The translations under genes were made by a program, and so were the position numbers. 64,000 nt of DNA. Source: a virus. Every line of letters starts with the position of its first letter. Within the stretch, counting starts at the first letter, position 1. Shown here piece after piece: positions 40,957-57,510 of the stretch. Where the stretch lies: the IMG/VR virus record IMGVR_UViG_3300002350_000001; one strand, written 5' to 3'. Below the pieces are notes generated by a model. That model was not told the DNA's origin. It saw only the letters and a program-made list of their open reading frames with translations, and ran no database searches.

Positions 40957-41219
40957 TTAATGGGCTACCTTTCTTTAGTTTGTATAGGACTATCCTATAC
41001 TAGGGGACTGACAAATTGGGGTCTTATTTGCTTAGGCTCACTGTGATTTGCATCACATTTATTTGCTAAGGCTCATACCTTTTTTGTCACTATTTAATTT
41101 TGATAGGAGTATCCTAACACATACCCCGCCAAAAGTCAAGTCCTAACACGGCGTGTCGCATGTGATTTAGACCACATAATCTCCCCCCGCAGTCGGGCGT
41201 GTCGTTTTGTCGAAAAAAG

Positions 41220-41244
41220 TTATCCACAGGGGTGATGTGGATAA
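41220..41244. promoter_or_regulatory. Inverted pair of perfect DnaA boxes
   Basis: TTATCCACA (41220-41228) - 7 nt - TGTGGATAA (41236-41244). Confidence 0.65.
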
Positions 41245-41359
41245 GTCATGTGACCCTTATCACAAAAATAGTTTTGCGACACTCCCGAGAAACGGGCTAA
41301 TTTGTCAGTGGTCTATGTTAGGATACATAGTATAAAGATAAAAAAGAAAGGAGAACCAA

Positions 41360-41584
41360 ATGTTCTCACTAAAGTATAAAGTAGAGTATAACTCTAATCC
41401 TAACTACCCTCTATCAAAAGAGTTTGGTAATGTATCTATAACAGTACCTAGCGAACAATACGCTAATGACTACTTAGACCTAGTATCTCAGAAAGGTACT
41501 ATCCTAGAAGTTTCTCTAACAGAGTTAGAAAACTACACACCTAGCAAGCGCATGGTGTACGCTACTACTAGAAGTTGGGAGTAA
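41360..41584 (+). CDS. Early hypothetical protein (74 aa)
   Basis: GAAAGGAG RBS; first gene after promoter 41296. Confidence 0.7.
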   Translation: MFSLKYKVEYNSNPNYPLSKEFGNVSITVPSEQYANDYLDLVSQKGTILEVSLTELENYTPSKRMVYATTRSWE

Positions 41585-41588
41585 TCTA

Positions 41589-41696
41589 ATGGATAAAGTT
41601 AGAAACCTAGAATTAGAAAACTATCTTGATGAACCTCAAGATGAATTAGCAACAAGGTTAGATAACCTAATCAAGAAAGGAGTGTACACTAAATGA
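41589..41696 (+). CDS. Micro-ORF (35 aa)
   Basis: MDKVRNLELENYLDEPQDELATRLDNLIKKGVYTK; translated manually. Confidence 0.55.
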   Translation: MDKVRNLELENYLDEPQDELATRLDNLIKKGVYTK

Positions 41697-41839
41697 AAAA
41701 AAATGTACTAATTAGTTTCGTTACTGATGCAGAAACAGATCTGCAAGCAATCTTTGCACTAAACAGAATAATGGAGAAGCTCCCTGAATCTGATTTAGAA
41801 AAGTTTGAAGCATTTGAAGTTTTAGATGCTGTTCAATAA
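41693..41839 (+). CDS. Micro-ORF (48 aa)
   Basis: GAAAGGAG RBS; ATGA overlap with the upstream gene. Confidence 0.6.
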   Translation: MKKNVLISFVTDAETDLQAIFALNRIMEKLPESDLEKFEAFEVLDAVQ

Positions 41840-42094
41840 ATAAGTTTTTGCGGAAATAAAACACCGCAAAAATTTTCGACAAAATGTGGGGCAAATCACA
41901 ATATCTCATCGGCGTGTCGCCTTGACTTTTTGGGGTTTCTCGTGTAGTATTCTACCTATACAATTAAATAAATAGCAAAAAAGGTGTGACGCAATTCACA
42001 TTCAAAATGTCCTAAATGTCCGAATTTAGATTTGATTTTGTCAGCCAAAAATGCTAGACTTACAGAGTAACAAACTAAAGAAAGGTGACAACTA

Positions 42095-42295
42095 ATGTCA
42101 GCAAACATCTACACAATAGAAAGCCTACTCGTAGGAAAAACTTATCGCTCAAAAACCTTAACGGGTGAAATTGTTTCAGCAGAAAAACACCCTTCCCCTG
42201 TATGGTATGAGAACGCAGAGGCGTATCTCGTAGAGGTTAGAAATCAAAATGGCGGTTATGCTTATCGCACTCTCGCAGTATCAACAGAAAACTAA
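42095..42295 (+). CDS. Small beta-barrel (SH3/KOW-like) early protein (66 aa)
   Basis: LVGKTYRSKTLTGEI; related to 45479 and 46251; GAAAGGTG RBS. Confidence 0.65.
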   Translation: MSANIYTIESLLVGKTYRSKTLTGEIVSAEKHPSPVWYENAEAYLVEVRNQNGGYAYRTLAVSTEN

Positions 42296-42309
42296 GAAAG
42301 GAAAACTAA

Positions 42310-42453
42310 ATGACACTAGAGGAATTTAGACAGTATCAACAAGCCCAATACGCAAAACAGCGTGAGGCTAATAAAGAAAAAATCAACGCTATGTTTCATA
42401 GTAACTCTCGCCCATTAAATAATTCACACCTACTAAAGAAAGCAGAAAACTAA
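42310..42453 (+). CDS. Micro-ORF (47 aa)
   Basis: GAAAGGA RBS; MTLEEFRQYQQAQYAKQRE... Confidence 0.6.
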   Translation: MTLEEFRQYQQAQYAKQREANKEKINAMFHSNSRPLNNSHLLKKAEN

Positions 42454-42455
42454 AA

Positions 42456-42713
42456 ATGACTAACACTACTTACACAGACTTCCCATTCACCGCTAAGGGA
42501 ATCAACTTTGTTTCAAGAGTTTATTCTAACTCTCCATTCCTTTCACGCATTCAGCAATTGCCAGCAGGCGTATTTGAAAGCATGAACATTGACGCAGTTT
42601 CAGATTTGCTAACTATTGAAAAAGAATACACCCTAGATGAGGTTCAAGCAGAACTAGACCGAGTCAATGCAGGCGGAAGCCATGCGTTTATTTTGTTAGG
42701 AGAAAACAACTAA
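42456..42713 (+). CDS. Early hypothetical protein (85 aa)
   Basis: ORF within the operon. Confidence 0.65.
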   Translation: MTNTTYTDFPFTAKGINFVSRVYSNSPFLSRIQQLPAGVFESMNIDAVSDLLTIEKEYTLDEVQAELDRVNAGGSHAFILLGENN

Positions 42714-42904
42714 TGATGACACGAAAAGACTATGTAAAAACTTCAAACATTCTAAAGGGTTTTTCTGATGAAATTCATCCAGCAGTTTTTGAGGATTTGG
42801 TTGAGGAGTTTTGTCAATACTTTGCAAGCGATAATGAAAACTTTGATAAAGTAAGATTTGAAAAGGCTTGCGGTGTTGATGAGTTAGGATTGATGCTAGC
42901 ATGA
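42713..42904 (+). CDS. Early hypothetical protein (63 aa)
   Basis: MMTRKDYVKTSNIL...F..DNENFD..RF.KAC; coupled to the upstream gene. Confidence 0.7.
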   Translation: MMTRKDYVKTSNILKGFSDEIHPAVFEDLVEEFCQYFASDNENFDKVRFEKACGVDELGLMLA

Positions 42905-42999
42905 ATAGATTTATAACTTCCCTTGTTCAAATTCTTTTGTGGTTTCCAGTTATTCTTATTTTAGTATTTGCATACAGAGAACGCAAAAAGCAAAAGTAA
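42901..42999 (+). CDS. Single-TM micro-protein (32 aa)
   Basis: MNRFITSLVQILLWFPVILILVFAYRERKKQK. Confidence 0.55.
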   Translation: MNRFITSLVQILLWFPVILILVFAYRERKKQK

Positions 43000-43003
43000 A
43001 AAA

Positions 43004-43031
43004 AGATCCTAAGCATGATTTAAAACTGCTT
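43004..43031 (+). ncRNA. Repeated H-type pseudoknot element, copy 1
   Basis: P1 AGATC/GATTT, P2 AAGCA/TGCTT; 5 nt after a stop codon. Confidence 0.7.
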
Positions 43032-43181
43032 GAAGCTTCAACTAAAATTTTCGACCCCCGCAGTCGGGCGTGTCGCTTTACGTACGATGTGATTTTTACC
43101 ACAATTTTGAGCGGCGTGTCGTTTTGATTTTGTCGGTGATAAATGATAGGATTACAGAGTAATTAAATGAAAGGAAAACTA

Positions 43182-43346
43182 ATGAGTGAGTTTATTTTAA
43201 TTAAGTCAGTATGCGGAGAAAAGGGTTCTTTCGTAGATGTCTATGATTTAGACCTTAACCCTCATGGAGTTGTTTGTTGTGATAATTGTCGCAGCATTGT
43301 GGCTACTCGTGAAAATTGGTTTGCCGAACACGGCGTGTCGGTTTGA
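43182..43346 (+). CDS. Cys-containing micro-protein (54 aa)
   Basis: GAAAGGA RBS; C...CCDNC; the stop codon lies inside the next promoter's -35. Confidence 0.6.
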   Translation: MSEFILIKSVCGEKGSFVDVYDLDLNPHGVVCCDNCRSIVATRENWFAEHGVSV

Positions 43347-43399
43347 TTTTGTCAGACCACTATGGTAAGTTTGCAGTATTGAAAGAAAGGAAATGAAAA

Positions 43400-43600
43400 A
43401 TGGATAGAATAGAATACGCAGTAGAAAGAATTCACAATTGTGATGAGTGTGGAGGAACGGGCTCTCAGTTTTGGGCTAATGGTGAAGACTATGACTTTGA
43501 GACTTGTGAGGAGTGTAATCCTCACGAACTAATCTTTGACTATGATGGAAATGTAGTTTGGGATAACGGAACGCTATTTACAACACAGGAGGCTAACTAA
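43400..43600 (+). CDS. Zn-finger protein, CxxCxGxG...CxxC (66 aa)
   Basis: CDECGGTG...CEEC; GAAAGGA RBS. Confidence 0.7.
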   Translation: MDRIEYAVERIHNCDECGGTGSQFWANGEDYDFETCEECNPHELIFDYDGNVVWDNGTLFTTQEAN

Positions 43601-43601
43601 A

Positions 43602-43895
43602 ATGGGAAGTAATTTTGCTAATGATTTAGTTACGCTTGGAGATTTGGGTATTGTCTTAGACATTGAAAGTCAGATAGGTATGCACCTTCAGGCTAATCAT
43701 TATCCACCTGTTCCCAAGTCTATGGTCAAGCCTTGTGTTGAGGCTATTGATGCAGTAAATGATTTAGGACTATGGAATTTGGACATTGAGTTGCCTGAAG
43801 GTATCTCATGGCGTGGTTTGACTACCGCCCCCGCTTCGGCTATTATTGAAGCACACCACTTAGACGCTTGGATTATTGAACGAGAGGAATACTAA
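43602..43895 (+). CDS. Early hypothetical protein (97 aa)
   Basis: HLQANHYPPVP...AIIEAHHLDAW; His-rich. Confidence 0.7.
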   Translation: MGSNFANDLVTLGDLGIVLDIESQIGMHLQANHYPPVPKSMVKPCVEAIDAVNDLGLWNLDIELPEGISWRGLTTAPASAIIEAHHLDAWIIEREEY

Positions 43896-43896
43896 A

Positions 43897-44106
43897 ATGG
43901 AATACACTTACTCACTTACTACCTCGTATGACGGGGAACTAGTAAACACCTTGCGAGTATCAGACATGATGGAAGCAGTAGACGCATGGAATAAATGCGT
44001 AGACTATGGAAATGCTAAAGACTATGCTACTTATAACCTATCAGACCCAACAGGTAAAATGTATACAAAAACTTTCTATGCCAATGGCGAAGTAGTTATA
44101 AAATAG
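43897..44106 (+). CDS. Early hypothetical protein (69 aa)
   Basis: GAGGA RBS supports the start at 43897. Confidence 0.65.
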   Translation: MEYTYSLTTSYDGELVNTLRVSDMMEAVDAWNKCVDYGNAKDYATYNLSDPTGKMYTKTFYANGEVVIK

Positions 44107-44113
44107 GTATACA

Positions 44114-44326
44114 ATGAAAACTATGGATTATCGCATGGTTGATGTTCTCAACGCAGACCAATTAGAAGTAAATGATCTAATTGGTGTTGCGGATGAGATT
44201 GTAAAAGTTATTTCAATTGCCCCGCTTTCTGATGGGTTTTCACTTGTAATTGAAAATGAATTTGGTGAAAAAGATTTAATTGAAATTCTTGATGATGAAC
44301 AATTTGAGTTATTTATTTTAGAATAA
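44114..44326 (+). CDS. Early hypothetical protein (70 aa, acidic)
   Basis: ORF within the operon. Confidence 0.6.
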   Translation: MKTMDYRMVDVLNADQLEVNDLIGVADEIVKVISIAPLSDGFSLVIENEFGEKDLIEILDDEQFELFILE

Positions 44327-44418
44327 AAGCTGCAAAAAATTTCGAGGGGCCCGAAATGTCCGAATTGCCCCTTTACGTCCGATTTGATTTTTTCCCCTAT
44401 TTCTGATAAGATTATTCT

Positions 44419-44565
44419 ATGTTTAAGAAATCTAGTGAACAATTACGTCATCTGCAGGAGCTACGCAGATCTAATGCCGCTACCCCTTTACGTAACAAGA
44501 AAAAATACACTAGACAAAGTAACAAAAAAATGTTAGACTTAGAAAGTAAAGAGAGGCCCCAATGA
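44419..44565 (+). CDS. Leaderless basic micro-protein (48 aa)
   Basis: MFKKSSEQLRHLQELRRSNAATPLRNKKKYTRQ...; ATG 6 nt after TAAGAT. Confidence 0.6.
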   Translation: MFKKSSEQLRHLQELRRSNAATPLRNKKKYTRQSNKKMLDLESKERPQ

Positions 44566-45281
44566 AATTAAAACGCTCTAATGATAGGAAAGTTACTAAT
44601 GCTGTATCACCAAATGGAAAAACACCAACAATCGCCAACACTTTTGGATTACCTAGCGGCAAGGCTTACTCATGTCCTGGTGAGACCTCTGTATGCGCTA
44701 AAGTATGCTACGCAGGAAAGCTTGAAAAAGTCTACAAAGGTGTAAGAGATACACTATTACACAATTGGAATTTATTAAAAGACGCAGACCATGACACAAT
44801 GGAAGCATTACTTACAGACATGATTAATGATTTCAAGAAAGACTGTGAAAAACGAGAAGCCCCAATGTTATTTAGAATTCACTGGGATGGCGATTTCTTT
44901 AGTGACGAGTACGCATTCGCATGGAAGCATGTTATCTTAAATAATCCTGATGTTCAATTCTGGGTTTATACACGAGTAGCCTCTGCTGCCAATATGTTAA
45001 AAGATATAGATAACCTATCTCTCTATTTCTCAACAGATAGTGAGAATAAAGAAGTTGCTATTAGTCTTAATAAAGATAAGGGAATTCGTTTAGCATACCT
45101 TGCCGATACCTTCGCAATTGGGCAGGCAGATCTAAAGGCAATGATAGGCAAGCCTGGCGCTAAGTGCCCTGAAAATAAAAAAGCAATTCCGTTAATTGAC
45201 AAAGAGGGCTCTGCCTGTGTAAAATGTTCTCTGTGTGTCTATAATAAGGCGGACATAGTATTCTCTGCTAAAAAGCGGTAG
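44562..45281 (+). CDS. GP88-like protein with a Cys cluster (239 aa)
   Basis: SCPGETSVCAKVCYA, FRIHWDGDFF, FWVYTR, CP...CVKCSLC. Confidence 0.7.
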   Translation: MKLKRSNDRKVTNAVSPNGKTPTIANTFGLPSGKAYSCPGETSVCAKVCYAGKLEKVYKGVRDTLLHNWNLLKDADHDTMEALLTDMINDFKKDCEKREAPMLFRIHWDGDFFSDEYAFAWKHVILNNPDVQFWVYTRVASAANMLKDIDNLSLYFSTDSENKEVAISLNKDKGIRLAYLADTFAIGQADLKAMIGKPGAKCPENKKAIPLIDKEGSACVKCSLCVYNKADIVFSAKKR

Positions 45282-45478
45282 AGATAAACAGAAAGGCAAA
45301 ACTAGTGGAACTAATAATCCTATTAGGCATAGCCCTGCTAGCAACACTAATAATGGCTGGGGGGAAGTGATTTACCTCACAAATCTCAAATAATGAGATT
45401 TTTAGGGAAAATAACTTGACAAAGCCAAAAATAAATGAAATAATAAATACCATAACCAACAACAAAGGAGAAATACAA

Positions 45479-45643
45479 ATGACAGTATCAGTATCAACTT
45501 ACAAGGTCGGCGACACTTACACTTCACAGAAGTCAAAGGTCACAGGCGTTATCAAGGAAATCGTACCAACAGACAAGAACACAGTTCGTGTCAAACTTGA
45601 TGTAGAAGGTCAGACACGCTGGACAACTTGGAAAGCAAACTAA
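45479..45643 (+). CDS. Small beta-barrel (SH3/KOW-like) early protein (54 aa)
   Basis: AAAGGAG RBS; YKVGDTYTSQKSKVTGVIKEIVP. Confidence 0.7.
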   Translation: MTVSVSTYKVGDTYTSQKSKVTGVIKEIVPTDKNTVRVKLDVEGQTRWTTWKAN

Positions 45644-45664
45644 TTCCTAACAAAAAACAGGAAA

Positions 45665-45693
45665 AGTCCTGAGCATGACTACTAAAACTGCTC
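45665..45693 (+). ncRNA. Pseudoknot element, copy 2
   Basis: P1 AGTC/GACT, P2 GAGCA/TGCTC. Confidence 0.75.
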
Positions 45694-45766
45694 AATTTGA
45701 TTTCTTATCTAATAAATGTTAGACTAGATACCCCCAACAAAACACCAACAGAAAGGTAATACATAA

Positions 45767-46189
45767 ATGGCACGACAGAAAGCAATTAGCGTAAAAATCG
45801 CAACACCAAAGGTAATCAAGGCACTAGAAACTCGTCTAGCAGAACTAGAAAAGAACTATGCCTCACAAGAAGCCAACGAAGCAAAGCATGAAAAGGCTAT
45901 GGAGAAGTGGCGCAAGGAAGTAGCAAAGTTCGCTATGGCTAATTTTGCTAAGGCAGAAAACTTCCGCACAAACTATCGCTCATGGAACAAGACACTCAAT
46001 GTTGATTTTGATTTAACAGTTAGTGAAACAGACTTTCCTAAAGAGCCTGAGAAGGACTACGAAGTTCTACACCGCCACTCATACAATGAGATGAAAGAGG
46101 AGTTATCTAACGCTATCCGTATTCTCAAGATGACAGATGAGGAAGTAGTTTCTACTTCTACTTACAACGCTATCGCCCGATACTTGTAA
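45767..46189 (+). CDS. Early hypothetical protein (140 aa)
   Basis: GAAAGG RBS; own promoter. Confidence 0.75.
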   Translation: MARQKAISVKIATPKVIKALETRLAELEKNYASQEANEAKHEKAMEKWRKEVAKFAMANFAKAENFRTNYRSWNKTLNVDFDLTVSETDFPKEPEKDYEVLHRHSYNEMKEELSNAIRILKMTDEEVVSTSTYNAIARYL

Positions 46190-46195
46190 AATTAC

Positions 46196-46222
46196 TTTCC
46201 TGAGCATGAAATAAAACTGCTC
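46196..46222 (+). ncRNA. Pseudoknot element, copy 3
   Basis: P1 TTTC/GAAA, P2 GAGCA/TGCTC. Confidence 0.75.
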
Positions 46223-46250
46223 AACACCCCAACTAAGAAAGGAAAATAAA

Positions 46251-46418
46251 ATGACACTAGGCGGATACACTTACCAAATTGGTGATTTATTTACAACAAG
46301 CAAGACAGGCGTTACAGGACGAATTGAAAAGTTTGTTCCACAAAGTAAAAATGTAACTCGTGTAATGTTGCGCTTAGCAAACGGACAACAGCGTTTTGCT
46401 ATGGTAAAAACCTACTAA
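46251..46418 (+). CDS. Small beta-barrel (SH3/KOW-like) early protein (55 aa)
   Basis: GAAAGGA RBS; YQIGDLFTTSKTGVTGRIEKFVPQSKNVTRV; paralog of 45479; not in the ORF track. Confidence 0.7.
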   Translation: MTLGGYTYQIGDLFTTSKTGVTGRIEKFVPQSKNVTRVMLRLANGQQRFAMVKTY

Positions 46419-46423
46419 TAAAA

Positions 46424-46451
46424 TTATCCTGAGCATGATAAAAAACTGCTC
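46424..46451 (+). ncRNA. Pseudoknot element, copy 4
   Basis: P1 TTATC/GATAA, P2 GAGCA/TGCTC. Confidence 0.75.
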
Positions 46452-46563
46452 AAAAAATTTTCGAGAAAATGTGACCAAGATCACACAGCAGCTTTACGGG
46501 GGATTTGTATTTTTTCCATATTTCTGCTAGACTTGGTATATACCCAAAGAAAGGATGCCCCTA

Positions 46564-46827
46564 ATGATATCAACCGCATTAGCAATACAAGACGCAACAA
46601 AAGAAGCAATTCACGACGAGGATGTTATGGACATGGCTCGCTCTATTTATCTAAGCAGACATGAAGTTTCTGAGGATGAGTTTATCAGAATGATGTACAT
46701 TTATTCTGCTCATTTGTCTGCTATGACTGCTACTCTAGTTACTCATGCTTGCTTGACTGAAAGCCAACTAAATGATATGCTAGAAACAATAAAAGAAATG
46801 GAAGCCCTAGGAAAGGATATAGAATAA
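46564..46827 (+). CDS. Early helical hypothetical protein (87 aa)
   Basis: GAAAGGA RBS. Confidence 0.7.
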   Translation: MISTALAIQDATKEAIHDEDVMDMARSIYLSRHEVSEDEFIRMMYIYSAHLSAMTATLVTHACLTESQLNDMLETIKEMEALGKDIE

Positions 46828-47237
46828 TGGAAGAAACAAATACACACTACATGACACGAGAGTTTCTTGAAACTACCCTTGTACAAAACAAGGAGCGCAT
46901 TCAGCAACTTGAAGAGCACATACAGACAGTAACTCAGCGCTCATATGGTGAGGCTGCAGAGCGTAACCGTATGCGTAATGAAATGCAAGAATGGACCTTA
47001 GAAAACTTAAGCGACGGTACCATTTCAGAAGGTTCTGCAGAAGAGATTGCAAGCATTTGCGGTTTTGAGTTAACAAATGAATTTGAATTAGAGGTTACAG
47101 TTCAATATTCAGTTACAGTTAATGCTCGTGATGAAGAATCAGCAATTAATTTAATTCATGATATTGATTTTGATTCAGTGTCATATCCTGAAGGTGTTAC
47201 ATATCTATCATCCACTGTTGACAGAATAGATTTGTGA
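46827..47237 (+). CDS. Early hypothetical protein, coiled coil plus beta domain (136 aa)
   Basis: Coupled ORF. Confidence 0.7.
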   Translation: MEETNTHYMTREFLETTLVQNKERIQQLEEHIQTVTQRSYGEAAERNRMRNEMQEWTLENLSDGTISEGSAEEIASICGFELTNEFELEVTVQYSVTVNARDEESAINLIHDIDFDSVSYPEGVTYLSSTVDRIDL

Positions 47238-47250
47238 TAGGGGGCTATCC

Positions 47251-47279
47251 AAGGACCTGAGCACGTCTTTAAACTGCTT
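47251..47279 (+). ncRNA. Pseudoknot element, copy 5
   Basis: P1 AAGGAC/GTCTTT, P2 GAGCA/TGCTT. Confidence 0.7.
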
Positions 47280-47350
47280 TCGCCAGGCTGATTAGGGCGA
47301 TCATAGAAATACTATAGAGCTAGTTCATTGGGGGACTAAAAGAACCCATA

Positions 47351-47377
47351 CTACCTGAGCATGTAGGAAAAAGGCTC
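47351..47377 (+). ncRNA. Pseudoknot element, copy 6
   Basis: P1 CTAC/GTAG, P2 GAGC/GCTC. Confidence 0.7.
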
Positions 47378-47512
47378 AAAAAATTTTCGACCCGCTGTGA
47401 TTTTGATCACATTTACGATGGTGTCCGATTTTTCCCAATTTCTAATAACCCTATTTGACTTTGTCAGTCCTGTCTGCTAAGATTGATTCATATCAAGAAA
47501 GGATATTAATAA

Positions 47513-48529
47513 ATGGCACATGAACTAGAAACCCAAAATGGCGTTGCCTCATTCGCATCATTCCGTGAACCTGCTTGGCATGGTTTAGGAACTGTATTCA
47601 CAGAAGAAAAAACAACAACAGAAATGTTGTCTGCTGCTAATCTATCTAATTGGAATGTTCGTCTTGAAGACGTAAATATTCCATCTCACTTATCATCAGA
47701 TAAGAATTACCAATATGTTGTTCGTACTAATCCTACTGACAATTCCCAGACAGACATTTTAGGTGTTGTCGGTGAGCGTTACCATGTTTTGCAGAATGAG
47801 GATTTATTCTCATTTGGTGATAACATTCTTGACGGTGGAGGTCGTTGGGAAACTGCTGGCTCTATTCGTGGAGGTCGTGTAGTATTTGGTTCTCTTGCTC
47901 TTGAACGTGAGACAGTACTAGACCCTAGCGGTGTTGCAGATAAGGTAAAAACTTATTTGCTCATTAACACATCACATGATGGCTCAATCGCTATTCAAGC
48001 AAGCATTACACCTGTTCGTGTAGTGTGCGCTAACACTCTCAATCTTGCTTTAGGCTCTAAGCGTGGCAAGAACGCTATCAAGCAATCTTTCAAAATCCGT
48101 CATACTCAGACGGCTAATGGTAAGGTTCAAATTGCTCGTGAGACTTTAGGTCTTGCTAATAAATACATGGACGCTTTTGATGTTATGGCTAAGGCTATGA
48201 TTGAAAAAGAAATCACCGCTGGTCAATTCAATGACATTATTCTTGCTGCTTACCCTAAGCCTGAAAAAGATGCTAAGGGCGCAATCAAGAAGTGGGAAAA
48301 CAAGGTTGATGTTATCAATGACATTTACACAGGCGAATTCAATGGTATGATTGCTAATACCGCTTGGGGTGCTTTCAATGCTCTAACTGAACGCCTTGAT
48401 TGGCACCGCTCTGCTCGTGGTGGGAATAACGAAAGTATTCTTGCTGCTGCTTCTGGTTTTGATGCTACAATTACAGCAGAAAAAAATCGTTTGCTAAAAG
48501 TTGTAAAAGATGTTTTAGCGATAGCGTAA
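47513..48529 (+). CDS. DUF932/DUF945 family phage/plasmid-like protein (338 aa)
   Basis: MAHELE...REPAWHGLG, LGVVGERYHVLQNEDLF, WETAGSIRGGRVVF, NTSHDGS, TPVRVVCANTL, TAWGAFNALTE. Confidence 0.85.
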   Translation: MAHELETQNGVASFASFREPAWHGLGTVFTEEKTTTEMLSAANLSNWNVRLEDVNIPSHLSSDKNYQYVVRTNPTDNSQTDILGVVGERYHVLQNEDLFSFGDNILDGGGRWETAGSIRGGRVVFGSLALERETVLDPSGVADKVKTYLLINTSHDGSIAIQASITPVRVVCANTLNLALGSKRGKNAIKQSFKIRHTQTANGKVQIARETLGLANKYMDAFDVMAKAMIEKEITAGQFNDIILAAYPKPEKDAKGAIKKWENKVDVINDIYTGEFNGMIANTAWGAFNALTERLDWHRSARGGNNESILAAASGFDATITAEKNRLLKVVKDVLAIA

Positions 48530-48540
48530 ATAAATACGCA

Positions 48541-48567
48541 ACTCCTGAGTAAGAGTATAAACTGCTC
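48541..48567 (+). ncRNA. Pseudoknot element, copy 7
   Basis: P1 ACTC/GAGT, P2 GAGTA/TGCTC (U-G wobble); followed by a T-tract. Confidence 0.75.
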
Positions 48568-48700
48568 ACTTTTTTATTTAGATCAAAAGCTGCTAAAAAA
48601 ATTCGAAACCATGATATTTTTTTATATTGTTTAATTACGAACGACTTGCTTTTTTCCCCAGTTTTTGGTATTCTTTATTTACCACAGAAAGGAAAAATAA

Positions 48701-48934
48701 ATGTCTAGTTTTCTAGAAAATGAAAATCAAATGGTTATTGATGCTATCTATCATGAGATTGGAGAAATGCTAGTTGAAGACTGGGTTAACTCCAATTTAG
48801 ATGAAGGGCAGATGTTTGCAGATTTTAGATTTGCAGAGATGTCTGATGATAATTACATTAAGGGTAGATTTAATCTATTCTATGATTTAAAACCAGGGGA
48901 CCAATACTATCTAGAATGGGATGAGGAAGCATAA
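48701..48934 (+). CDS. Acidic early protein (77 aa)
   Basis: GAAAGGA RBS; own promoter. Confidence 0.7.
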   Translation: MSSFLENENQMVIDAIYHEIGEMLVEDWVNSNLDEGQMFADFRFAEMSDDNYIKGRFNLFYDLKPGDQYYLEWDEEA

Positions 48935-49104
48935 TGTTGGGTTATGACTTAGAGGATTTAAACATAATGATGGATTCACTAGCAGAGGTTATTCAGATTG
49001 AAGAATCTTCTCAAACCCCGTCAATTTCTGATAGGAATCTAGGAGGACTTAAAACAAGCTTGTTTTTCTTACAAGGCTTGTGGGCAGAAGGGTATTTTGA
49101 CTGA
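48934..49104 (+). CDS. Micro-ORF (56 aa)
   Basis: MLGYDLEDL...FLQGLWAEGYFD; TAATG overlap with the upstream stop. Confidence 0.6.
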   Translation: MLGYDLEDLNIMMDSLAEVIQIEESSQTPSISDRNLGGLKTSLFFLQGLWAEGYFD

Positions 49105-49206
49105 GGGGCATGTGTCCTAAATCACACCCAAAAGGCTTTACGAACGCTTGACAAAAACCCCCATTTTTTGAGATAATTGCATTACGACCAACAGAAAGGA
49201 CCCTAA

Positions 49207-49959
49207 ATGCCAAATTATTGTTTTAATACCTTGACTATTCAAGGACCGAAAGAACAAGTAGACTCTATTAAGGCTAAGTTAAATGAGCCTTTTCAAAGAC
49301 ATCATGACCAATGGAATACAGAAACTCAGCAAATGGAAATAAAAGAGTATTTCTATAATAATCCTGTGTTTGCATTTTGGAATATTTATAATCCAGTACA
49401 AGACGGTATCTCTAACGAGGTCTACCTAGGTCAGCCTGACCATACTATTCCATTTGCAGAACAAATGAAATTTAAGACTAATGATTGGTATTCATGGAAT
49501 GTCCGTAATTGGGGAACCAAATGGGATGTTGCTGTAGGAGATGAAGATAACTATCCTGATACAGAGTTATTAGAACATATGGATAGAGGAGAAGACCAGT
49601 GGGTTATTTATAAGTTCAATACCGCTTGGTCTCCACCTGCTCCTGCTATGGAGAAGTTGTCTGCTCTAGTTCCTAACTGTGTAGTTACTCTTTCCTTTGA
49701 GGAAGAAACAGGTTGGGGTGGCGAGTATGAGTTTGTCAATGGAGAAATGACTGCAGAATCTAATTATGATTCTAAGTGCCGTGACTGTGATGCAGAAGAC
49801 CAAATGGAATACTGCGAAAACGATTGTGGAGAAATCTGCAGTGCTTGTCATTGGTTAGGTGAGGCAGACCTAGAGTGTGTTGCAGAATGTGATGAGCACA
49901 AGATATACTTGGACGAGGAACATGTACCAGATTACAGAAAGGATGAAATCAATGTCTAA
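49207..49959 (+). CDS. DUF1281/YubB (Api92-like) ferredoxin-fold protein with Cys-rich C-terminus (250 aa)
   Basis: MPNYCFNTLTIQG, WYSWNVRNWGTKWD, FNTAWSPP, FEEETGWGG; CRDC..C...C..C..C tail. Confidence 0.8.
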   Translation: MPNYCFNTLTIQGPKEQVDSIKAKLNEPFQRHHDQWNTETQQMEIKEYFYNNPVFAFWNIYNPVQDGISNEVYLGQPDHTIPFAEQMKFKTNDWYSWNVRNWGTKWDVAVGDEDNYPDTELLEHMDRGEDQWVIYKFNTAWSPPAPAMEKLSALVPNCVVTLSFEEETGWGGEYEFVNGEMTAESNYDSKCRDCDAEDQMEYCENDCGEICSACHWLGEADLECVAECDEHKIYLDEEHVPDYRKDEINV

Positions 49960-50155
49960 TTACTTATTAGAATATATGAAGATACATCTAATTAGTTTAG
50001 AACAAGATTTAGAGAATATAGCCCAAGAAATGGAATTGCTTGACCCTGAATCTAAAGCCTGTAAAGAATTAGACTATGAATATAATCATATGTCAGGACA
50101 GATTCTTTCTACCCGCCATTTTATACAGGTAGGAGAAGAACATGCAGGCAATTAA
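49952..50155 (+). CDS. Coiled-coil early protein (67 aa)
   Basis: GAAAGGA RBS before ATG 49952. Confidence 0.65.
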   Translation: MSNYLLEYMKIHLISLEQDLENIAQEMELLDPESKACKELDYEYNHMSGQILSTRHFIQVGEEHAGN

Positions 50156-50417
50156 TGAGTTAGAACCATATCTGCAGAAGGCTGTTGACGCTGGCATATC
50201 TGGATTGGATATCATGCACGGTCATCTCAAAACATTAATGCTGGAGGCTGAGCGGGAACTAGAAGAGGCAAGCCGCATTGAGATTGAGAACGACTATTCA
50301 GACGCAATAGAATCCATGGAGCGTAAATACTGGGAAGGCCAATGTGACGCTCTTTCACACCTATATGCATTAACATATCAACTATCATTTGCCATAGCAG
50401 AAAGGGACGGGCAATGA
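50142..50417 (+). CDS. Early hypothetical protein (91 aa)
   Basis: AGGAG RBS. Confidence 0.65.
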   Translation: MQAINELEPYLQKAVDAGISGLDIMHGHLKTLMLEAERELEEASRIEIENDYSDAIESMERKYWEGQCDALSHLYALTYQLSFAIAERDGQ

Positions 50418-50749
50418 GTTTAGATCTACAAGAACAAACACGTATGCTAGATGTATATCGTGATATTGAAGATATCATTGACAGAATTAGTAAACTTCCT
50501 ATTGGAATGCCGCTAGTCTGGGTATATGTCTGGGATGTTGCTCGTCAACTATGGCATGACATCATGGAAGGTCAGGAAGAAGAATTCTGCACAGCCATGG
50601 ATGAAGAAGAGATGTGGGAACTGTTTTGGACCCAGGCTGATAAGAATGGGTTTACTTTAGAATACGGAACAGAGGACCTATATGAGTCTATCCGTGATTG
50701 GATGTTTGACCAGGGTATTATTGAAGAAGTAGAAGAGGAAGAGGAATGA
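50414..50749 (+). CDS. Acidic early protein (111 aa)
   Basis: ATGA overlap; strongly acidic composition. Confidence 0.7.
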   Translation: MSLDLQEQTRMLDVYRDIEDIIDRISKLPIGMPLVWVYVWDVARQLWHDIMEGQEEEFCTAMDEEEMWELFWTQADKNGFTLEYGTEDLYESIRDWMFDQGIIEEVEEEEE

Positions 50750-50816
50750 TGTACGAGCAGTTGACATTAAACTTAGATTTTGATATCATTGAGCAAACTA
50801 TAGAAAGGGAAGAGTA

Positions 50817-51164: not shown

Positions 51165-51297
51165 TTGAGGGTCCGTGTGGTGAGCGGACTGTATACGTGG
51201 GACGAGGGGTCCTCCCACGACAATAAGGGTGGAGCGCAGGCTGTGGTGGGCTTGCGCTCCCCCAACATCTTTGATACAATAAGAGAGGGTATAAATA

Positions 51298-51537: not shown

Positions 51538-51832
51538 GGTAGCAGACATACTAGCAGTAATCTATAATGATGGTGTAGATTTAGAAGCAGTAGAATACCT
51601 GCCTTCTGAGTATTGGTTAGAGTGTGAGGACGGGATAACCCTTGCTACATTTATTTCATCTGGTTGGGCAGAGCCTACCGAAATGGGTAAATCTCAGTTA
51701 GAGTATGCCTGGCGTGTTCTTTGTGCTGCCAGAAGTCTTGACCCTGAAATAATGTATGAAACTCCACTTGAGTTTTTTGAGGCACAGATAGTAGAAGCTG
51801 ATGTTATCCCAATTGAGGAGGGTAGAAAGTAA
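51524..51832 (+). CDS. Hypothetical protein (102 aa)
   Basis: Acidic; resembles 51832..52116 (K..IL..(I/L).......F.....GL.LA). Confidence 0.65.
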   Translation: MDYGKVADILAVIYNDGVDLEAVEYLPSEYWLECEDGITLATFISSGWAEPTEMGKSQLEYAWRVLCAARSLDPEIMYETPLEFFEAQIVEADVIPIEEGRK

Positions 51833-52116
51833 TGCTTGACTATAAAACAAAATGCAATATTCTATCAGATCTATGGGAGAACTATAGAGATGAAGAATCT
51901 TTTATAGATTTTATTGAATATAACGATCTTGGATTACCTATGGCATATATGCTACGGGAAGGTTTAGTCAACGAGGTAACAGAAACAGGACAGTTATATA
52001 TCAATGAGACATTTAATTTATTTATTGCTGCCCTTCAAATTAAAGAAGAAGAAATCAAAGAAGGCACAACATTAGATATCTTATTAGATATGGCTGAGAA
52101 AAAGCAAAACCCATAA
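51832..52116 (+). CDS. Hypothetical protein (94 aa)
   Basis: GAGG RBS; KCNILSDLW..Y....F.DFIEYNDLGLPMAY. Confidence 0.7.
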   Translation: MLDYKTKCNILSDLWENYRDEESFIDFIEYNDLGLPMAYMLREGLVNEVTETGQLYINETFNLFIAALQIKEEEIKEGTTLDILLDMAEKKQNP

Positions 52117-52810
52117 GATTTTTCGACAAACCTTTTAGGAATTTATTAGATTACGAACATCGAATATTTTTCCCATTTTTTTAGATTACGAACAAACAAT
52201 ATTTTTCCCCAAACCCTATATCCAAACATATCTATATCCTTATACCAGGTATACTTCTTATAGTAGTAATTGGTATTCTTTATATACCCCGCCATTTTTG
52301 AAAAAATAAGATTACGAACGAGCTTTTTTAAGCCCAGCATTTTGACGGGCATCTTACCACACGACGGGCGTTTTGTCAAGGGGCGCAAAAAACGGGACGG
52401 TATAAAAAAGATTACAACCAATACCCTATATACAAACACTATATCCTGGATAAAATAGATTACGAAAGCTATAAATTTTTTCCTGGATTTTCCAAATATT
52501 ATCCATATATTTTATAACATTTTGTTATTGTTTTCCACAATTTTGAGCAATTTTTATAACATTTCTATATCAAATATTGAGACATGTTTTGCTCATATTG
52601 TGGGTAAATGGATACTTGACAAACAATTTGATATGTGGTATATGGGGAAATTCCCTGTTTTAAAATTTGGAAAGGGGGTTTTGCCGCTGCAGCATTACGA
52701 ACGCCCCTCTTAAAAGTGGTCCATTCCCCACTATCCTCCACTTTCCTCCATTCATAGAATATAAAATTATCCACAGTAAGATTTAAATGTGGATAAACCT
52801 GTGGATAACT
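52117..52810. other. Non-coding region with DnaA boxes and iteron-like AGATTACGAAC repeats; candidate origin
   Basis: Perfect DnaA boxes at 52767, 52788 and 52800; one-mismatch boxes at 52499, 52531 and 52599; AGATTACGAA(C/A) at 52148, 52183, 52309 and 52457; ATTACGAAC at 52694. Confidence 0.6.
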
Positions 52811-52815
52811 ATGAA

Positions 52816-53448
52816 TTATTGCCTATATTTTTGTCTATTTATTTCCCAATTGTCAATATCTCTTGGTAGATCAAAGTCTTCTGTCCAATCATTTATCTTT
52901 ACTACATCAAAGCTATGCTTGTTAGTTTTTAACTGTTCGTATAAACACCAACCACCAGGTAGATTAAAATAATCAGAAGACTCTATAATAGAGCGTATTG
53001 TATTATCTAGTATAGGTATAGACTTTCCATTAAACCCAATTCCCCATATTTCTTTCCAAGGCTTTCCAGTTATCTCTGAAGCCCTATCCCTAAGATAAAA
53101 TGATAGATCAGATTTATCATTCATTATTGTTTCAACTGCTTCATCTGTAAAATATACATCTGCAAAAACGAGAATATTTCTCTCTGATGACCATATATCC
53201 CTGCTAGACCAAAACTTGGCTACATCTTTCCATGCTTTATCAACAGGGGGGACATAGGTTTGAGCCCCATTTACGGTATCTTCTCCATCATTACACACTA
53301 TAACAATATTATCTGTATACTTAGAAAACTGCCTATAAGTTCTTTCAATTAATACTTCTTCTTCAATTAATAAACGATGCTTGGGGGTTCCCCTATAATT
53401 TCCCCACCTGGTTCCATTTCCTGCAGCTAATATTAAAACCTTTATCAT
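52816..53448 (-). CDS. Sugar/nucleotidyltransferase (NTP_transf-like, 210 aa)
   Basis: VLILAAGNGTRWG, PKHRLLI.EEVLIERT, FADVYF, EDFDLP.D. Confidence 0.8.
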   Translation of the reverse strand: MIKVLILAAGNGTRWGNYRGTPKHRLLIEEEVLIERTYRQFSKYTDNIVIVCNDGEDTVNGAQTYVPPVDKAWKDVAKFWSSRDIWSSERNILVFADVYFTDEAVETIMNDKSDLSFYLRDRASEITGKPWKEIWGIGFNGKSIPILDNTIRSIIESSDYFNLPGGWCLYEQLKTNKHSFDVVKINDWTEDFDLPRDIDNWEINRQKYRQ

Positions 53449-53482
53449 AAATCAAGAATACCATATCTGGTATCATAGATAT

Positions 53483-53638
53483 ATGTATTGTCGTCATGTT
53501 TATGAGTATGTTTATGCAGATATCTGCCCTCATTGTGGGAAAGATACTCATGAAACTGATTGGAAATTTGAAGCAGAATTACATAAAGAGTGGATATCAT
53601 CTGGTAAAGCATCTTCTCAGGGGTGGTGGTCTATCTAA
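53483..53638 (+). CDS. Cys/His micro-protein (51 aa)
   Basis: MYCRHVYEYVYADICPHCG; leaderless promoter. Confidence 0.6.
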   Translation: MYCRHVYEYVYADICPHCGKDTHETDWKFEAELHKEWISSGKASSQGWWSI

Positions 53639-53862
53639 TGCCTAGCCAAGAATCAAAATGGTATAAAGATATAAGACTGATTAAGGCTTTGGACGAAATT
53701 CGTCAGAAGAATCTGGCCTTTATGTCTTATTGTTATTATTGTGACGCTAAGTCCATAGATATAAAAGCAGTCAAAGAAAAGCTATATCCTGTATGTGAAA
53801 AACATGATCAGGAAAATAACATAAATAAACTATTGGAGTCTCAATCCTCATTTGAGGAATAA
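53638..53862 (+). CDS. Hypothetical protein with CxxC...C (74 aa)
   Basis: CYYC...VCEKH; TAATG overlap with the upstream stop. Confidence 0.6.
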   Translation: MPSQESKWYKDIRLIKALDEIRQKNLAFMSYCYYCDAKSIDIKAVKEKLYPVCEKHDQENNINKLLESQSSFEE

Positions 53863-54050
53863 TACGAGGGTAGATCAGTAAAATCCCCATATGCTTCTTC
53901 GCATAATGGGCAATAACTATTAGCAGTATTTGTTTGATCTAGGCTAATCAGCAATAATCCCTTATCCTGCATATCTAATATTTCTGGATCTACTCGTCCA
54001 TGGATTATAGGTATTAATTTAGCTTTACATGTTATACAGTTTGTTATCAT
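53841..54050 (-). CDS. Zn-ribbon micro-protein (69 aa)
   Basis: CITC..LIPIIHG...CPLC; TGCTAAACT promoter. Confidence 0.6.
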   Translation of the reverse strand: MITNCITCKAKLIPIIHGRVDPEILDMQDKGLLLISLDQTNTANSYCPLCEEAYGDFTDLPSYYSSNED

Positions 54051-54126
54051 ACTAGGATAAGTTTAGCATACTTCTATATACCGCCCTGATTTGCATACTG
54101 CCCATATATGCGCTATAATTGATACT

Positions 54127-54199
54127 AGAGACGTTAGCCCTCCCTTTCTGGGGCTATTTCCTCTTCTCCTGAGCATGAGGTTAAAAGGCTCCCTTTCTG
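54127..54199 (+). ncRNA. Candidate small RNA: anti-SD hairpin plus pseudoknot copy 8 (54165-54191)
   Basis: Promoter TTGCAT-17-TATAAT (54091-54119); TAGCCC/GGGCTA stem with loop CCCTTTCT; P1 TCTC/GAGG, P2 GAGC/GCTC; no ORF. Confidence 0.55.
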
Positions 54200-54236
54200 T
54201 ATTGAAATACTGCCCATGTTGTGAGATAATGAATAT

Positions 54237-54425
54237 ATGAGTGATTTAGATGAATTTATGAAAGACCCATGGAAACGATTTAATGAAATGCGTAAAACCC
54301 CACATGAATGTGATTATGACTATAGAATAGACTCATCAGGAACAATGTTTTTTGAAATATGTAAATTATGCTTAGATACAAAAGGGGTCGTTGAAATGAA
54401 TAATAATGAGGAATTAAATGATTAA
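54237..54425 (+). CDS. Cys/His micro-protein (62 aa)
   Basis: HECDY...ICKLC; leaderless promoter. Confidence 0.6.
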   Translation: MSDLDEFMKDPWKRFNEMRKTPHECDYDYRIDSSGTMFFEICKLCLDTKGVVEMNNNEELND

Positions 54426-54531
54426 AAATGAATGTAAAAAATGTGAGATGAGCTTTAAAGATCCTTTATATTGGGATGTTCATCAAACTATGTCAGATAA
54501 TAGTATTTGGTGTGTAGTTAGAAAACCTTAA
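54418..54531 (+). CDS. Micro-ORF with CxxC (37 aa)
   Basis: MIKNECKKCEMSFKDPLYWDVHQ; GAGGA RBS. Confidence 0.5.
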   Translation: MIKNECKKCEMSFKDPLYWDVHQTMSDNSIWCVVRKP

Positions 54532-54630
54532 CCATACCGCCCTGTTTAGGGCATATGTTGGTTTTAGTTTTCTATTTTCCGCCGAACTTAAAAGATTGAC
54601 TTTGGCCTATTTTTTCGCTATACTTGATAT

Positions 54631-54735
54631 ATGGGTAGAGTTGTAATTTGTGACATTTGTAAAAAAGAAATAGAGTTGCGATGGGGCATTTTTGGACATG
54701 ATACTTTATACCGTCATAGAAAGGAACATAAGTGA
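54631..54735 (+). CDS. C2H2-like micro-protein (34 aa)
   Basis: CDIC...HRKEH; TATACT plus 6 nt. Confidence 0.55.
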   Translation: MGRVVICDICKKEIELRWGIFGHDTLYRHRKEHK

Positions 54736-54857
54736 ACGAGCAAGAATTACGTGAACAGATAGCAAAAGAGATTGAAACAATTGAAATTCAAACAAGTATT
54801 ACAAACGCACTAGGTATGCGTATTATGGCTGCAAAAGTTGCAAGAGGAGAAAAATGA
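54732..54857 (+). CDS. Micro-ORF (41 aa)
   Basis: GAAAGGA RBS; GTGA overlap. Confidence 0.5.
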   Translation: MNEQELREQIAKEIETIEIQTSITNALGMRIMAAKVARGEK

Positions 54858-55021
54858 AAAAACAAAAATATTTTACTAAAAACATAAATAATGAGTTGGA
54901 AGTCATTGATGAAGATATTGTTAATGATGTTATTAGGCAATACATTGAGAGAAAGTATATAGGGGTAATAGTACTATCTACCTTTATTATTAGCTTTCTT
55001 CTTGGAGTTATTGCTTCTTGA
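54854..55021 (+). CDS. C-terminal TM micro-protein (55 aa)
   Basis: GAGGAG RBS; hydrophobic C-terminus. Confidence 0.55.
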   Translation: MKKQKYFTKNINNELEVIDEDIVNDVIRQYIERKYIGVIVLSTFIISFLLGVIAS

Positions 55022-55089
55022 CATACCGCCCCACTTATGCTAAACTATTAAAGCAAGGGAATGCGTAACTATACAGAAAAGAGAGAGCA

Positions 55090-55467
55090 ATGAATCCTGA
55101 AATAACGCTAGTGGGTCGTCTTGGTACAGATCCAGAAAAAATCGGAGACAAGGGTGTACGTCTTCGTATTGTAACAAGTGATCGTGTAAAAAGTGCATCT
55201 GGTGAATGGTCGGACAAGGATACTTCTTGGTGGACTGTTAAGCTTTGGAATAAGCCAGCAGAGCAAGCATTTACAACGATTAAGAAGGGCCAAGAAGTTA
55301 TGGTCCGTGGAACAATTTATCAAGACACTTGGACTGATAAAGATGGTTCAAGTCGTAGCACTTACGAAGTAAGAGGAGAGTCTATTGGAGTAACATCCTA
55401 TACTCTTGCAAAGAATGCGTCGCCATCAATGGCAATGACAGTATCCACTGAGGATCCGTGGAAATAA
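55090..55467 (+). CDS. ssb: Single-stranded DNA-binding protein (125 aa)
   Basis: ITLVGRLGTDPE, WWTVKLW...AE, KKGQEVMVRG.IYQDTWTDKDG..RSTYEV OB-fold motifs. Confidence 0.88.
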   Translation: MNPEITLVGRLGTDPEKIGDKGVRLRIVTSDRVKSASGEWSDKDTSWWTVKLWNKPAEQAFTTIKKGQEVMVRGTIYQDTWTDKDGSSRSTYEVRGESIGVTSYTLAKNASPSMAMTVSTEDPWK

Positions 55468-55586
55468 AAATGCGTCATTAATATGACTTCATTGAAGATT
55501 GGAGGGCGGTAAGAATTGATAACTTCCGTCCTCCACTTCGGTGGATTGCAAATTTAGCTATTATTATCGTCAATTGCTTTATTTAA
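55458..55586 (+). pseudogene. Possible gene remnant with an internal TAA, cut at the end of the opposing GT gene
   Basis: Frame VEIKMRH*YDFIEDWRAVRIDNFRPPLRWIAN then runs into the antisense of the GT stop at 55554. Confidence 0.35.
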
Positions 55587-56357
55587 TACTGCAAAATCAA
55601 CAAATGATCCAGTAAACAACATACTTCCCATATGCTGTAGTTTTACCCAAGGCATTAACCAAGTTTTATATCCAATTTTATTTGCCCAACGTGTAAAGAA
55701 ATAGTCCTCTGACAAATATGTATTGTCAATTTCATCAATCTTACAATCAAAATAAGCAAACATAGGTTCTTCAGTTTTTGCATTTACATATCTTTGCTCT
55801 GGGTATGCTTCGTAAAACTTTTCAAATACTTCTCTTGCAATGAGCATAAATCCAGTACTGCCATCTTTAATTTCTACTGGGTTGGTTAATGATATTTCTC
55901 TTTTTTCACCATAAAAATTAATACCGTATCTACCAGAATATTTCATATAATCAGATTCTTGTTTAATTAGTCCAAGATCTTTTGCTTTTTGTATTCTGTC
56001 CCATACAATTGTTTTATGTGGATATGGTCCAACAATTATCTGCTTGTCATCGTTTGTAGCAGCAAGATATACAGCATGTATAAAATCAATATAATCAAAA
56101 GAGATATCGCCATCAATAAAAAATAGATAGTCGTAGTCACTATCTAAAAATTGTTTAACAATTTCGTTTCTTCCACGAGCAATCAGTGACTCTGAAGTTA
56201 TATATGTCATTCCTAGCTTTATATTTTCTTTAGCACAAAAAATAGAAAGCCTCATCATTGACTCAAAATAATTGGCAAAGCTCATACCGCCATACATTGG
56301 AGTACCAACCATGACGGATTTTCCTCTAACTACATTTAAATCTATATTGTTATCCAT
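55554..56357 (-). CDS. GT-A fold glycosyltransferase (267 aa)
   Basis: VGTPMYGG, ESLIARGRN, YLFFIDGDI (DxD), GSTGFMLIAREVFE, YLSEDYFF. Confidence 0.8.
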   Translation of the reverse strand: MDNNIDLNVVRGKSVMVGTPMYGGMSFANYFESMMRLSIFCAKENIKLGMTYITSESLIARGRNEIVKQFLDSDYDYLFFIDGDISFDYIDFIHAVYLAATNDDKQIIVGPYPHKTIVWDRIQKAKDLGLIKQESDYMKYSGRYGINFYGEKREISLTNPVEIKDGSTGFMLIAREVFEKFYEAYPEQRYVNAKTEEPMFAYFDCKIDEIDNTYLSEDYFFTRWANKIGYKTWLMPWVKLQHMGSMLFTGSFVDFAVLNKAIDDNNS

Positions 56358-56422
56358 AATTCCCCTTTCCTAAATTATACACCATAGTTGCACTATTTGA
56401 TGTTTTCTGATATCATGTATGT

Positions 56423-56787: not shown

Positions 56788-56797
56788 GGAATTGGTT

Positions 56798-57502: not shown

Positions 57503-57510
57503 GGGTAAAA

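Follow-up and report, generated by a model that had tools for sequence, protein, structure and literature searches.

The locus described here lies in a window of 64,000 nt (the whole stretch of DNA that was analysed; IMG/VR virus record IMGVR_UViG_3300002350_000001), which is part of a 107,731-bp phage genome with 35.5% GC and a terminal overlap of ~210 bp. Structural and late genes fill the minus strand up to ~40 kb, small plus-strand genes with host-type promoters form a block from ~41 to 52 kb, and the locus, at 54.1 kb, sits between this early block and a region of SSB and tRNA genes. The tRNA cluster itself (57682-58156) holds six tRNAs by Rfam and five by ARAGORN (Met-CAU, Ile-UAU, Arg-UCU, Asp-GUC and Glu-UUC), the one at 57760-57830 being called by Rfam only (42 bits). 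Outside the window, a minus-strand WhiB-family gene (G000:C1:72438-72611; 45 bits, above the Pfam cut-off) suggests an actinobacterial host; the portal protein shares only ~45% identity with its counterparts in large Streptomyces siphoviruses, and the phage is apparently lytic. Megablast of 53000-56000 against the phage genome collection gave no match. Judged by its occurrence in metagenome runs, the phage is recurrent, widespread and abundant in lakes, with the DNA of window positions 53800-54600 present at full word share in at least 24 freshwater/lake runs from 2016-2024.

The RNA gene occupies a divergent intergenic space (Table 1). On one side, a minus-strand gene starting at 54050 encodes a 69-aa CxxC...CxxC protein; it has an extended -10 box (TGCTAAACT) 9 nt upstream of its ATG and, carrying no Shine-Dalgarno sequence, is effectively leaderless. 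On the plus strand, promoter P1 is followed by no start codon in a usable (leaderless or Shine-Dalgarno-led) position. The sequence-only reading of this DNA had picked out a TTGCAT-17-TATAAT promoter without a downstream ORF, a UAGCCC/GGGCUA hairpin with a CCCUUUCU loop, and an eighth pseudoknot copy followed by a second CCCUUUCU, and all of these elements are present. The next transcription unit begins with promoter P2; the ATG at 54237 starts on the seventh base downstream of P2, which makes the following ORF (54237-54425) leaderless.

Table 1. Coordinates of the small RNA gene, its surroundings and the sites discussed in the text
Feature	Position	Strand	Details
69-aa protein gene	54050..53841	-	divergent
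Promoter P1	54091..54119	+	-35 TTGCAT 54091-54096, 17-nt spacer, -10 TATAAT 54114-54119; near-consensus, host-type
Predicted transcription start	T54126 or A54127	+	placed by distance to the -10 box
Closing stem	RNA 5′ end to 54164	+	5′-terminal AGAG with CUCU 54161-54164; present in the minimum-energy fold
Hairpin	54135..54156	+	54135-54141 with 54150-54156; 7 bp including the closing U·G pair
Hairpin loop CCCUUUCU	54142-54149	+	first anti-ribosome-site copy
H-type pseudoknot, copy 8 of 8 in the genome	54165..54191	+	S1: 54165-54168 with 54177-54180
Pseudoknot copy 8, S2	54171-54174 with 54188-54191	+	A-rich loop 3: 54181-54187
Single-stranded tail CCCUUUCUG	54191..54199	+	second CCCUUUCU at 54191-54198; probable 3′ end region
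P2 (next transcription unit, outside the RNA)	54202..54239	+	TTGAAA 54202-54207, 17-nt spacer, TG-extended GATAAT 54225-54230
Proposed target AGAAAGG sites (examples)	41345, 42295, 45750, 46236, 47496, 48686, 49193, 50399, 50802	+	region 40974..50808
Further AGAAAGG site	40974	-
Further AGAAAGG site, outlier	54718

CCCTTTCT has two copies on the plus strand of the whole genome, both at this locus, and the genome's only two copies of the 11-mer CTCCCTTTCTG lie at 54140 and 54189, a distance of 49 nt that puts them out of frame. The count of CCCTTTCT is not unusual, as composition predicts ~2 copies per strand; what is unusual is that both copies lie within 57 nt and in exposed positions. Opening the CCUUUCU copies costs 0.04 kcal/mol in the hairpin loop and 1.0 kcal/mol in the tail, which predicts that both are accessible. 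The module has a single copy in the 107,731-bp genome, and the RNA, with its predicted 3′ end, would be about 72-77 nt long here and about 115-150 nt in relatives with two hairpins.

Two further sequence elements were seen around the locus. The word ATACCGCCC(C/T) occurs at 54078-54088, 54533-54543, 55023-55032 and 40393-40402, within the -35 and spacer regions of promoters or just upstream of these; in relatives a word of this type appears as tataccgccc before TTGCAT or TTGACA, and it may be a regulator site. The other element, at 54532-54590, combines a long hairpin (AACCAUACCGCCCUG...AGGGCAUAUGUUGGUU), a conserved box, TCTATTTT(C/G)CGCCGAACTT(T)AAA, and a promoter, in that order. The same hairpin and box stand in L006 (6640-6700, minus strand), L019 (~4431-4480) and L039 (6416-6470), and the arrangement resembles a canonical terminator joined to an inter-cassette signal that the relatives have conserved.

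Conservation and structure of the RNA module

We searched IMG/VR by four routes (the 210-aa neighbour protein, the two 11-mers together, one 11-mer plus the pseudoknot core, and the adjacent 69-aa protein) and found the same module in ~20 distinct phage contigs. Its parts keep one order throughout: promoter, variable 5′ stem, hairpin or hairpins, pseudoknot, pyrimidine-rich tail, and another promoter with a leaderless ORF. A -35/-10 pair is present in 20/20 members, with the -10 box 6-7 nt upstream of the RNA start and with spacer sequences that differ, and the variable 5′ stem of the relatives often pairs (U)AGAAGG with CCUUCU. Members have two hairpins, but the window, L039 and L048 have one; the loop is (U)CCCUUUCU(G). 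The search with the 69-aa protein, for which the RNA was not used as a query, returned 15 contigs, and the RNA was found in 14/14 of those with upstream DNA.

The place of the module varies: in this genome it precedes the 210-aa gene, in L006 it follows that gene, and in L039 it comes behind the homologue of ORF 54418. It therefore behaves as a self-contained cassette. Small zinc-finger-like proteins flank the RNA gene in every relative, and the flanking small proteins matched nothing informative in Pfam or PHROGs.

We built a covariance model and aligned 20 members to it, counting a structure that includes both pseudoknot stems. Paired cells amounted to 97.0%, against 41-49% when the partners were slid by 1-3 columns, in an alignment that, being fitted to the model, favours structure; a MAFFT alignment gave identical helices. 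Changes on both sides were found in 11/23 pairs, and 0/500 shuffles reached the observed covariation. RNAalifold recovered both hairpins and pseudoknot stem 2, with compensatory changes in 10/18 pairs. Stems covary between UAGCCC/GGGCUA in the window and UGGCCC/GGGCCA in L039, and S2 changes from GAGC/GCUC to GGGC/GCCC in 7/20 members. Because the module recurs in ~20 contigs with different stems and identical loops, we regard it as one stand-alone RNA gene and not a chance pattern. The earlier proposal of a stand-alone, promoter-driven, structured non-coding RNA is borne out by this family, with its -10 box in every one of the 20 members and its covarying helices. Judged by its aligned sequences, the family is a real, new and covariation-supported group of phage small RNAs.

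The strand and the non-coding nature of the gene follow from the same comparison. G·U pairs are frequent, occur at several positions and would read A·C on the opposite strand, which assigns the structure to the plus strand; coding is excluded because the motif copies, with spacings of 49 nt here and of 26 and 42 nt in L006, do not share a reading frame. We considered it highly improbable that the locus is not an RNA gene at all and instead encodes a minus-strand 37-aa protein (54176..54063, with AGAAAGGGAG upstream) or consists of DNA-level binding repeats. Such a reading can point to a minus strand that is purine-rich and open in several frames, and to an ATG within the pseudoknot core with AGAAAGG 15 nt upstream. 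The open frames are, however, a composition effect: after an MLRRR start forced by the pseudoknot, minus-strand frames and sequences diverge among relatives, the 15-nt spacing falls outside the 7-12 nt of real sites, the upstream site is lost in 8/20 members, and both the G·U pairs and the compensatory stem changes favour a plus-strand RNA. A plus-strand 49-aa ORF was rejected on the same grounds, namely unconserved frames, composition and wrong ribosome-site spacing.

Another improbable reading, though less so than a protein, keeps the RNA and confines it to an action in cis: P1 and the RNA would serve the leaderless gene 54237-54425 by insulation, by termination or by transcriptional interference with P2, with no target in trans. 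The following promoter and leaderless ORF do lie within 0-30 nt of the module in every member, the tail often overlaps the extended -10 box of that promoter (as CTGTATAAT), plain U-tracts follow the pseudoknot in L030 and L022, and the hairpin here scores as terminator-like. Yet an insulator needs no invariant 7-8-nt loop repeated two to three times in unrelated stems, the ORF downstream of the module differs between members while the module itself stands at different places, and a U-tract follows only 14/87 pseudoknots (sampled regardless of tail). We likewise rejected the hairpin at 54135-54156 as the terminator of a ~35-nt RNA, since its terminator-like score is not conserved in relatives. 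The equivalent hairpins of the relatives lack U-rich tracts and, in two-hairpin members, have AAGUCG, AAAUGG or the pseudoknot behind them.

Relatives retrieved through the 210-aa neighbour (L001-L005 and L010-L018) showed no module in the fetched flanks, only pseudoknots after genes. Across prokaryote genomes (one per species), the double 11-mer gave 35 matches, none of which fits the covariance model; the six inspected were simple tandem repeats. A metagenome scan with a loose pattern gave chance matches among the matches listed, and one with the covariance model gave a single match, L069, to the pseudoknot alone. Neither the hairpin nor the pseudoknot nor the module as a whole matched any Rfam family (gathering scores for the whole window; E up to 10 over 40200-57600). 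One element on an unrelated-looking contig (L183, 2405-2522, minus strand) has a -10 box and a hairpin whose 12-nt loop contains CCUUUCU, with a pseudoknot and then a U-tract behind it. It could be distantly related to the family or resemble it by chance and, as a single case with a fold z-score of -0.36, was left out of the family count.

The loop core, the 16S tail and the early-gene tag

The loop core CCUUUCU(G) is invariant in the family, including the members found only through a neighbouring protein. For the 15 members retrieved by requiring two exact 11-mers, loop identity is uninformative because those 11-mers were the search criterion; members not selected for both loops nonetheless keep CCUUUCUG, and their flanking loop bases vary. 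Three variants are informative, namely CAACCUUUCUG in hairpin 2 of L046, UUACCUUUCUG in L048 and GUCCCCUUUCUG in hairpin 1 of L053, and they identify the selected core as CCUUUCU(G) and not as UCCC or CUCC. The tail copy is exact (CCUUUCU) in 12/20 members, with a U-rich tract in its place in most of the others.

This core equals the last seven bases of an extended 16S rRNA tail, GAUCACCUCCUUUCU, which has been documented for several bacteria (PMC6288834). Immediately 5′ of the core, the phage RNAs have CUCCC or UUACC, against CCUCC in rRNA. We take the extended tail to hold for Actinobacteria as well.

Because the core is the 16S 3′ tail, its match to any tail-directed site follows from rRNA mimicry alone and is no proof of mRNA targeting. 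The RNA might accordingly be a mimic of the 16S tail that acts as a decoy or sponge, titrating a protein that recognises the tail or pyrimidine-rich loops, with no mRNA pairing involved; we consider this unlikely. Candidate partners would be a ribosomal protein such as S1, a nuclease or toxin directed at rRNA, or an RNA-binding protein of the phage. Besides the seven-base identity to the tail, the arrangement of several hairpins showing one identical loop speaks for such a decoy, being a hallmark of protein-sponge RNAs of the CsrB/RsmZ type. L046 moreover has CCUCCUUUCU after its pseudoknot, and the small zinc-finger-like proteins beside the gene in every relative are in keeping with a protein partner. 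Against it, Pfam and PHROGs yielded no candidate partner among the flanking genes, and the bases 5′ of the core differ from rRNA, so that the anti-Shine-Dalgarno core itself is not mimicked. A decoy also leaves unexplained a matching, class-specific tag on the phage's own messages.

That tag is (C)AGAAAGG, the exact complement of the loop core, placed at ribosome sites. AGAAAGGA has 12 copies in the genome, all on the plus strand, and AGAAAGG has 27, of which ~17 lie 7-12 nt before a start codon, nearly all of them between 40974 and 50802. With a gene set that was crude, the tag was counted at 11/32 early-block genes and at 0/134 others (Fisher p 2.7e-9). The sequence-only reading had called the loop an anti-Shine-Dalgarno sequence, complementary to a near-match of the ribosome-binding site used throughout the early genes. 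The loop is indeed complementary to an early-gene ribosome site, and this site is almost restricted to the early region; what the loop matches, though, is a private AGAAAGG tag and not Shine-Dalgarno sequences generally, and only a third to a half of the early-block genes carry it. Most late genes have a site of the GGAG type or an ATG that immediately follows a -10 box. In relatives the same tag stands on genes upstream of the RNA and on the same strand, with 10 sites in L025 and 7 in L029. Neither the loop nor the tag varies within the family, which leaves nothing for a co-evolution comparison.

Duplexes between the loop and start regions averaged -7.9 kcal/mol for early genes and -5.0 kcal/mol for the others (p 1.7e-4). 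Net energies after opening costs ranged from -6 to -15 kcal/mol over 15 tagged sites. Before opening costs, the loop and the 16S tail formed duplexes of similar strength with the tagged sites. The complementarity spans only 7-8 nt, and the 8-nt loop cannot pair fully without opening the closing U·G pair. GGAG-type sites are predicted to pair poorly with the loop, and late and leaderless genes would be spared. Two features of the functional class of anti-ribosome-site small RNAs are present here: a promoter of its own, with a predicted 3′ end and no coding potential behind it, and a seed that is predicted to be accessible and is complementary to its proposed sites (~16 AGAAAGG sites).

The same RNA, pairing in the same way, might have host messages as its main targets, those that pair with the distal 16S tail, and so contribute to host shut-off. 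Any host site of the AGAAAGG(A/G) type is predicted to be bound like the phage sites, and a strong host-type promoter would be in keeping with an RNA made as soon as infection begins. We nevertheless judge host messages to be rather improbable as the main targets, for this would not explain why the same tag is found on the phage's early genes and only there; the host, moreover, is known only as an actinobacterium suggested by the WhiB-like gene.

A proposed role in early-gene translation

Our preferred interpretation, held tentatively, is that the phage produces a stand-alone small RNA that pairs with its tagged early messages and blocks their translation, sparing messages with GGAG-type sites and leaderless ones. 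In outline, the near-consensus host-type promoter would start a transcript at ~54126/54127 that folds into a short closing stem, a hairpin showing CCCUUUCU and an H-type pseudoknot as its 3′ module, followed by a single-stranded CCCUUUCU. The exposed CCUUUCU(G) copies would base-pair with the (C)AGAAAGG tag on the phage's own early messages, in competition with 16S rRNA, whose 3′ tail has the identical sequence, and would thereby lower early-gene translation; little effect is expected on leaderless messages or on those with GGAG-type sites. The loss of the third core copy in 8/20 members counts against this pairing model.

A stronger version is also possible, and we hold it more loosely: the RNA may be a class-wide switch from early to late translation that, by copying the 16S tail two to three times, withdraws the whole tagged early class at once. 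In this version the private tag would label the phage's first genes and pair with the outermost 3′ end of 16S rRNA. P1, as a strong host-type promoter, could fire from the start of infection, which fits a delayed shut-off only if the RNA first accumulates. A spacer element common to P1 and other promoters, sought as a clue to timing, gave only three matches.

Several bacterial RNA families resemble the phage RNA in architecture. Cuckoo RNAs consist of adjacent hairpins with highly variable stems and the same pyrimidine-rich, anti-Shine-Dalgarno-like loop, vary in hairpin number and have been proposed to pair with ribosome sites (PMC4615179). This alphaproteobacterial family (RSs0680/CcsR1-4 and SmelC397/NfeR1; Rfam ar14 RF02344 and CcsR1 RF02791) has a modular architecture in common with ours, and the two-hairpin phage members fall within its range of two to four hairpins, whereas the one-hairpin forms (the window, L039 and L048) lie below its minimum of two. 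The cuckoo loop is CCUCCUCCC, against (U)CCCUUUCU(G) and the variants CAACCUUUCUG and UUACCUUUCUG in the phage RNA, which has one or two hairpins plus a pseudoknot and a single-stranded copy, occurs in apparent actinobacterial phages and has no Rfam match.

In LhrC, redundant CU-rich sites in loops and single-stranded stretches are each able to bind a target at its G-rich ribosome site (PMC4132741). LhrC of Listeria monocytogenes (RF00616) and the UCCC-motif small RNAs of Firmicutes (RNAIII, RsaE/RoxS, SprD and FsrA) are like the phage RNA in such redundancy across loop and single strand. LhrC carries three UCCC sites; UCCC is likewise present in most loops and in the tail of the phage RNA but is lost in hairpin 2 of L046 and in L048, where CCUUUCU stays. 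The 3′ module of the phage RNA, moreover, is a pseudoknot and not a motif-carrying terminator hairpin, and no sequence or Rfam similarity to LhrC was found.

The 6C RNA of Actinobacteria uses C-rich loops that pair, with no need of a chaperone, with several mRNAs at their G-rich ribosome sites (PMC6486639). It shares the likely host phylum with the phage RNA but is chromosomal where ours is phage-borne. A 6C RNA (RF01066) has at least two loops with at least six C, whereas the phage loops hold at most 3-4 consecutive C, their seed is CCUUUCU, the proposed targets are A/G sites and Rfam gives no match.

A phage precedent is the c4 antisense RNA, whose loops pair around the ribosome-binding site of a phage message and block its translation (PMC12197685). 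c4 (P1/P7, RF01695) acts on one operon of a temperate phage, whereas here one seed would face a tag common to ~16 genes of an apparently lytic phage; the phage RNA has no Rfam match, and its gene stands alone between small genes without assigned function. By its differing loop motifs and by the lack of a match to any Rfam model, the phage RNA is best placed in none of the cuckoo, LhrC, 6C and c4 families.

In phage T4, early messages are shut off through a ribosome-site motif by the endoribonuclease RegB, which cleaves at GGAG, and by the repressor RegA. The outcome proposed here is alike, with the difference that the agents there are proteins and here would be an RNA. Temporal control in lytic phages is usually ascribed to transcription (sigma factors, new polymerases and anti-termination) and to a few proteins such as RegA and RegB. 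If the pairing model is true, it adds a layer of control in which a single small RNA could turn off all messages of a class through the ribosome-site tag that they share. We found no description in the literature of a phage RNA with repeated loops matching a private tag of its own early genes.

The pseudoknot beyond the small RNA

The pseudoknot is by no means restricted to the small RNA gene. The genome holds eight copies, all on the plus strand (at 43008, 45668, 46199, 46428, 47256, 47354, 48544 and 54168), of the form xxxC-CU-GAGCA-U-Gxxx, A-rich loop, UGCUC, and their S1 arms covary. IMG/VR scans found it in well over 150 contigs (loci L176-L390) of 32-70% GC, with perfect, covarying S1 and S2, and nearly all copies lie just after stop codons. 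Given this spread over so many contigs, the pseudoknot is not private to the small-RNA clade.

Two assignments were tried and rejected. A generic U-tract terminator does not fit, since at least five T within 8 nt follow only the 14/87 copies counted above (sampled regardless of tail). A PreQ1-I riboswitch (RF00522) has a similar topology, but the eight copies gave no Rfam match (E up to 10) and are found behind stop codons instead of in leaders. Within the small RNA, where it would form the 3′ module, the pseudoknot may serve end formation or protection, and its phage-wide spread over 32-70% GC with no assigned function merits a study of its own.

In the early block, CRP-type palindromes (TGTGA-N6-TCACA) lie upstream of early promoters at 41880-41897, 46470-46485, 47396-47411 and 43088-43103, often directly after a pseudoknot copy and a AAAATTTTCGA word.
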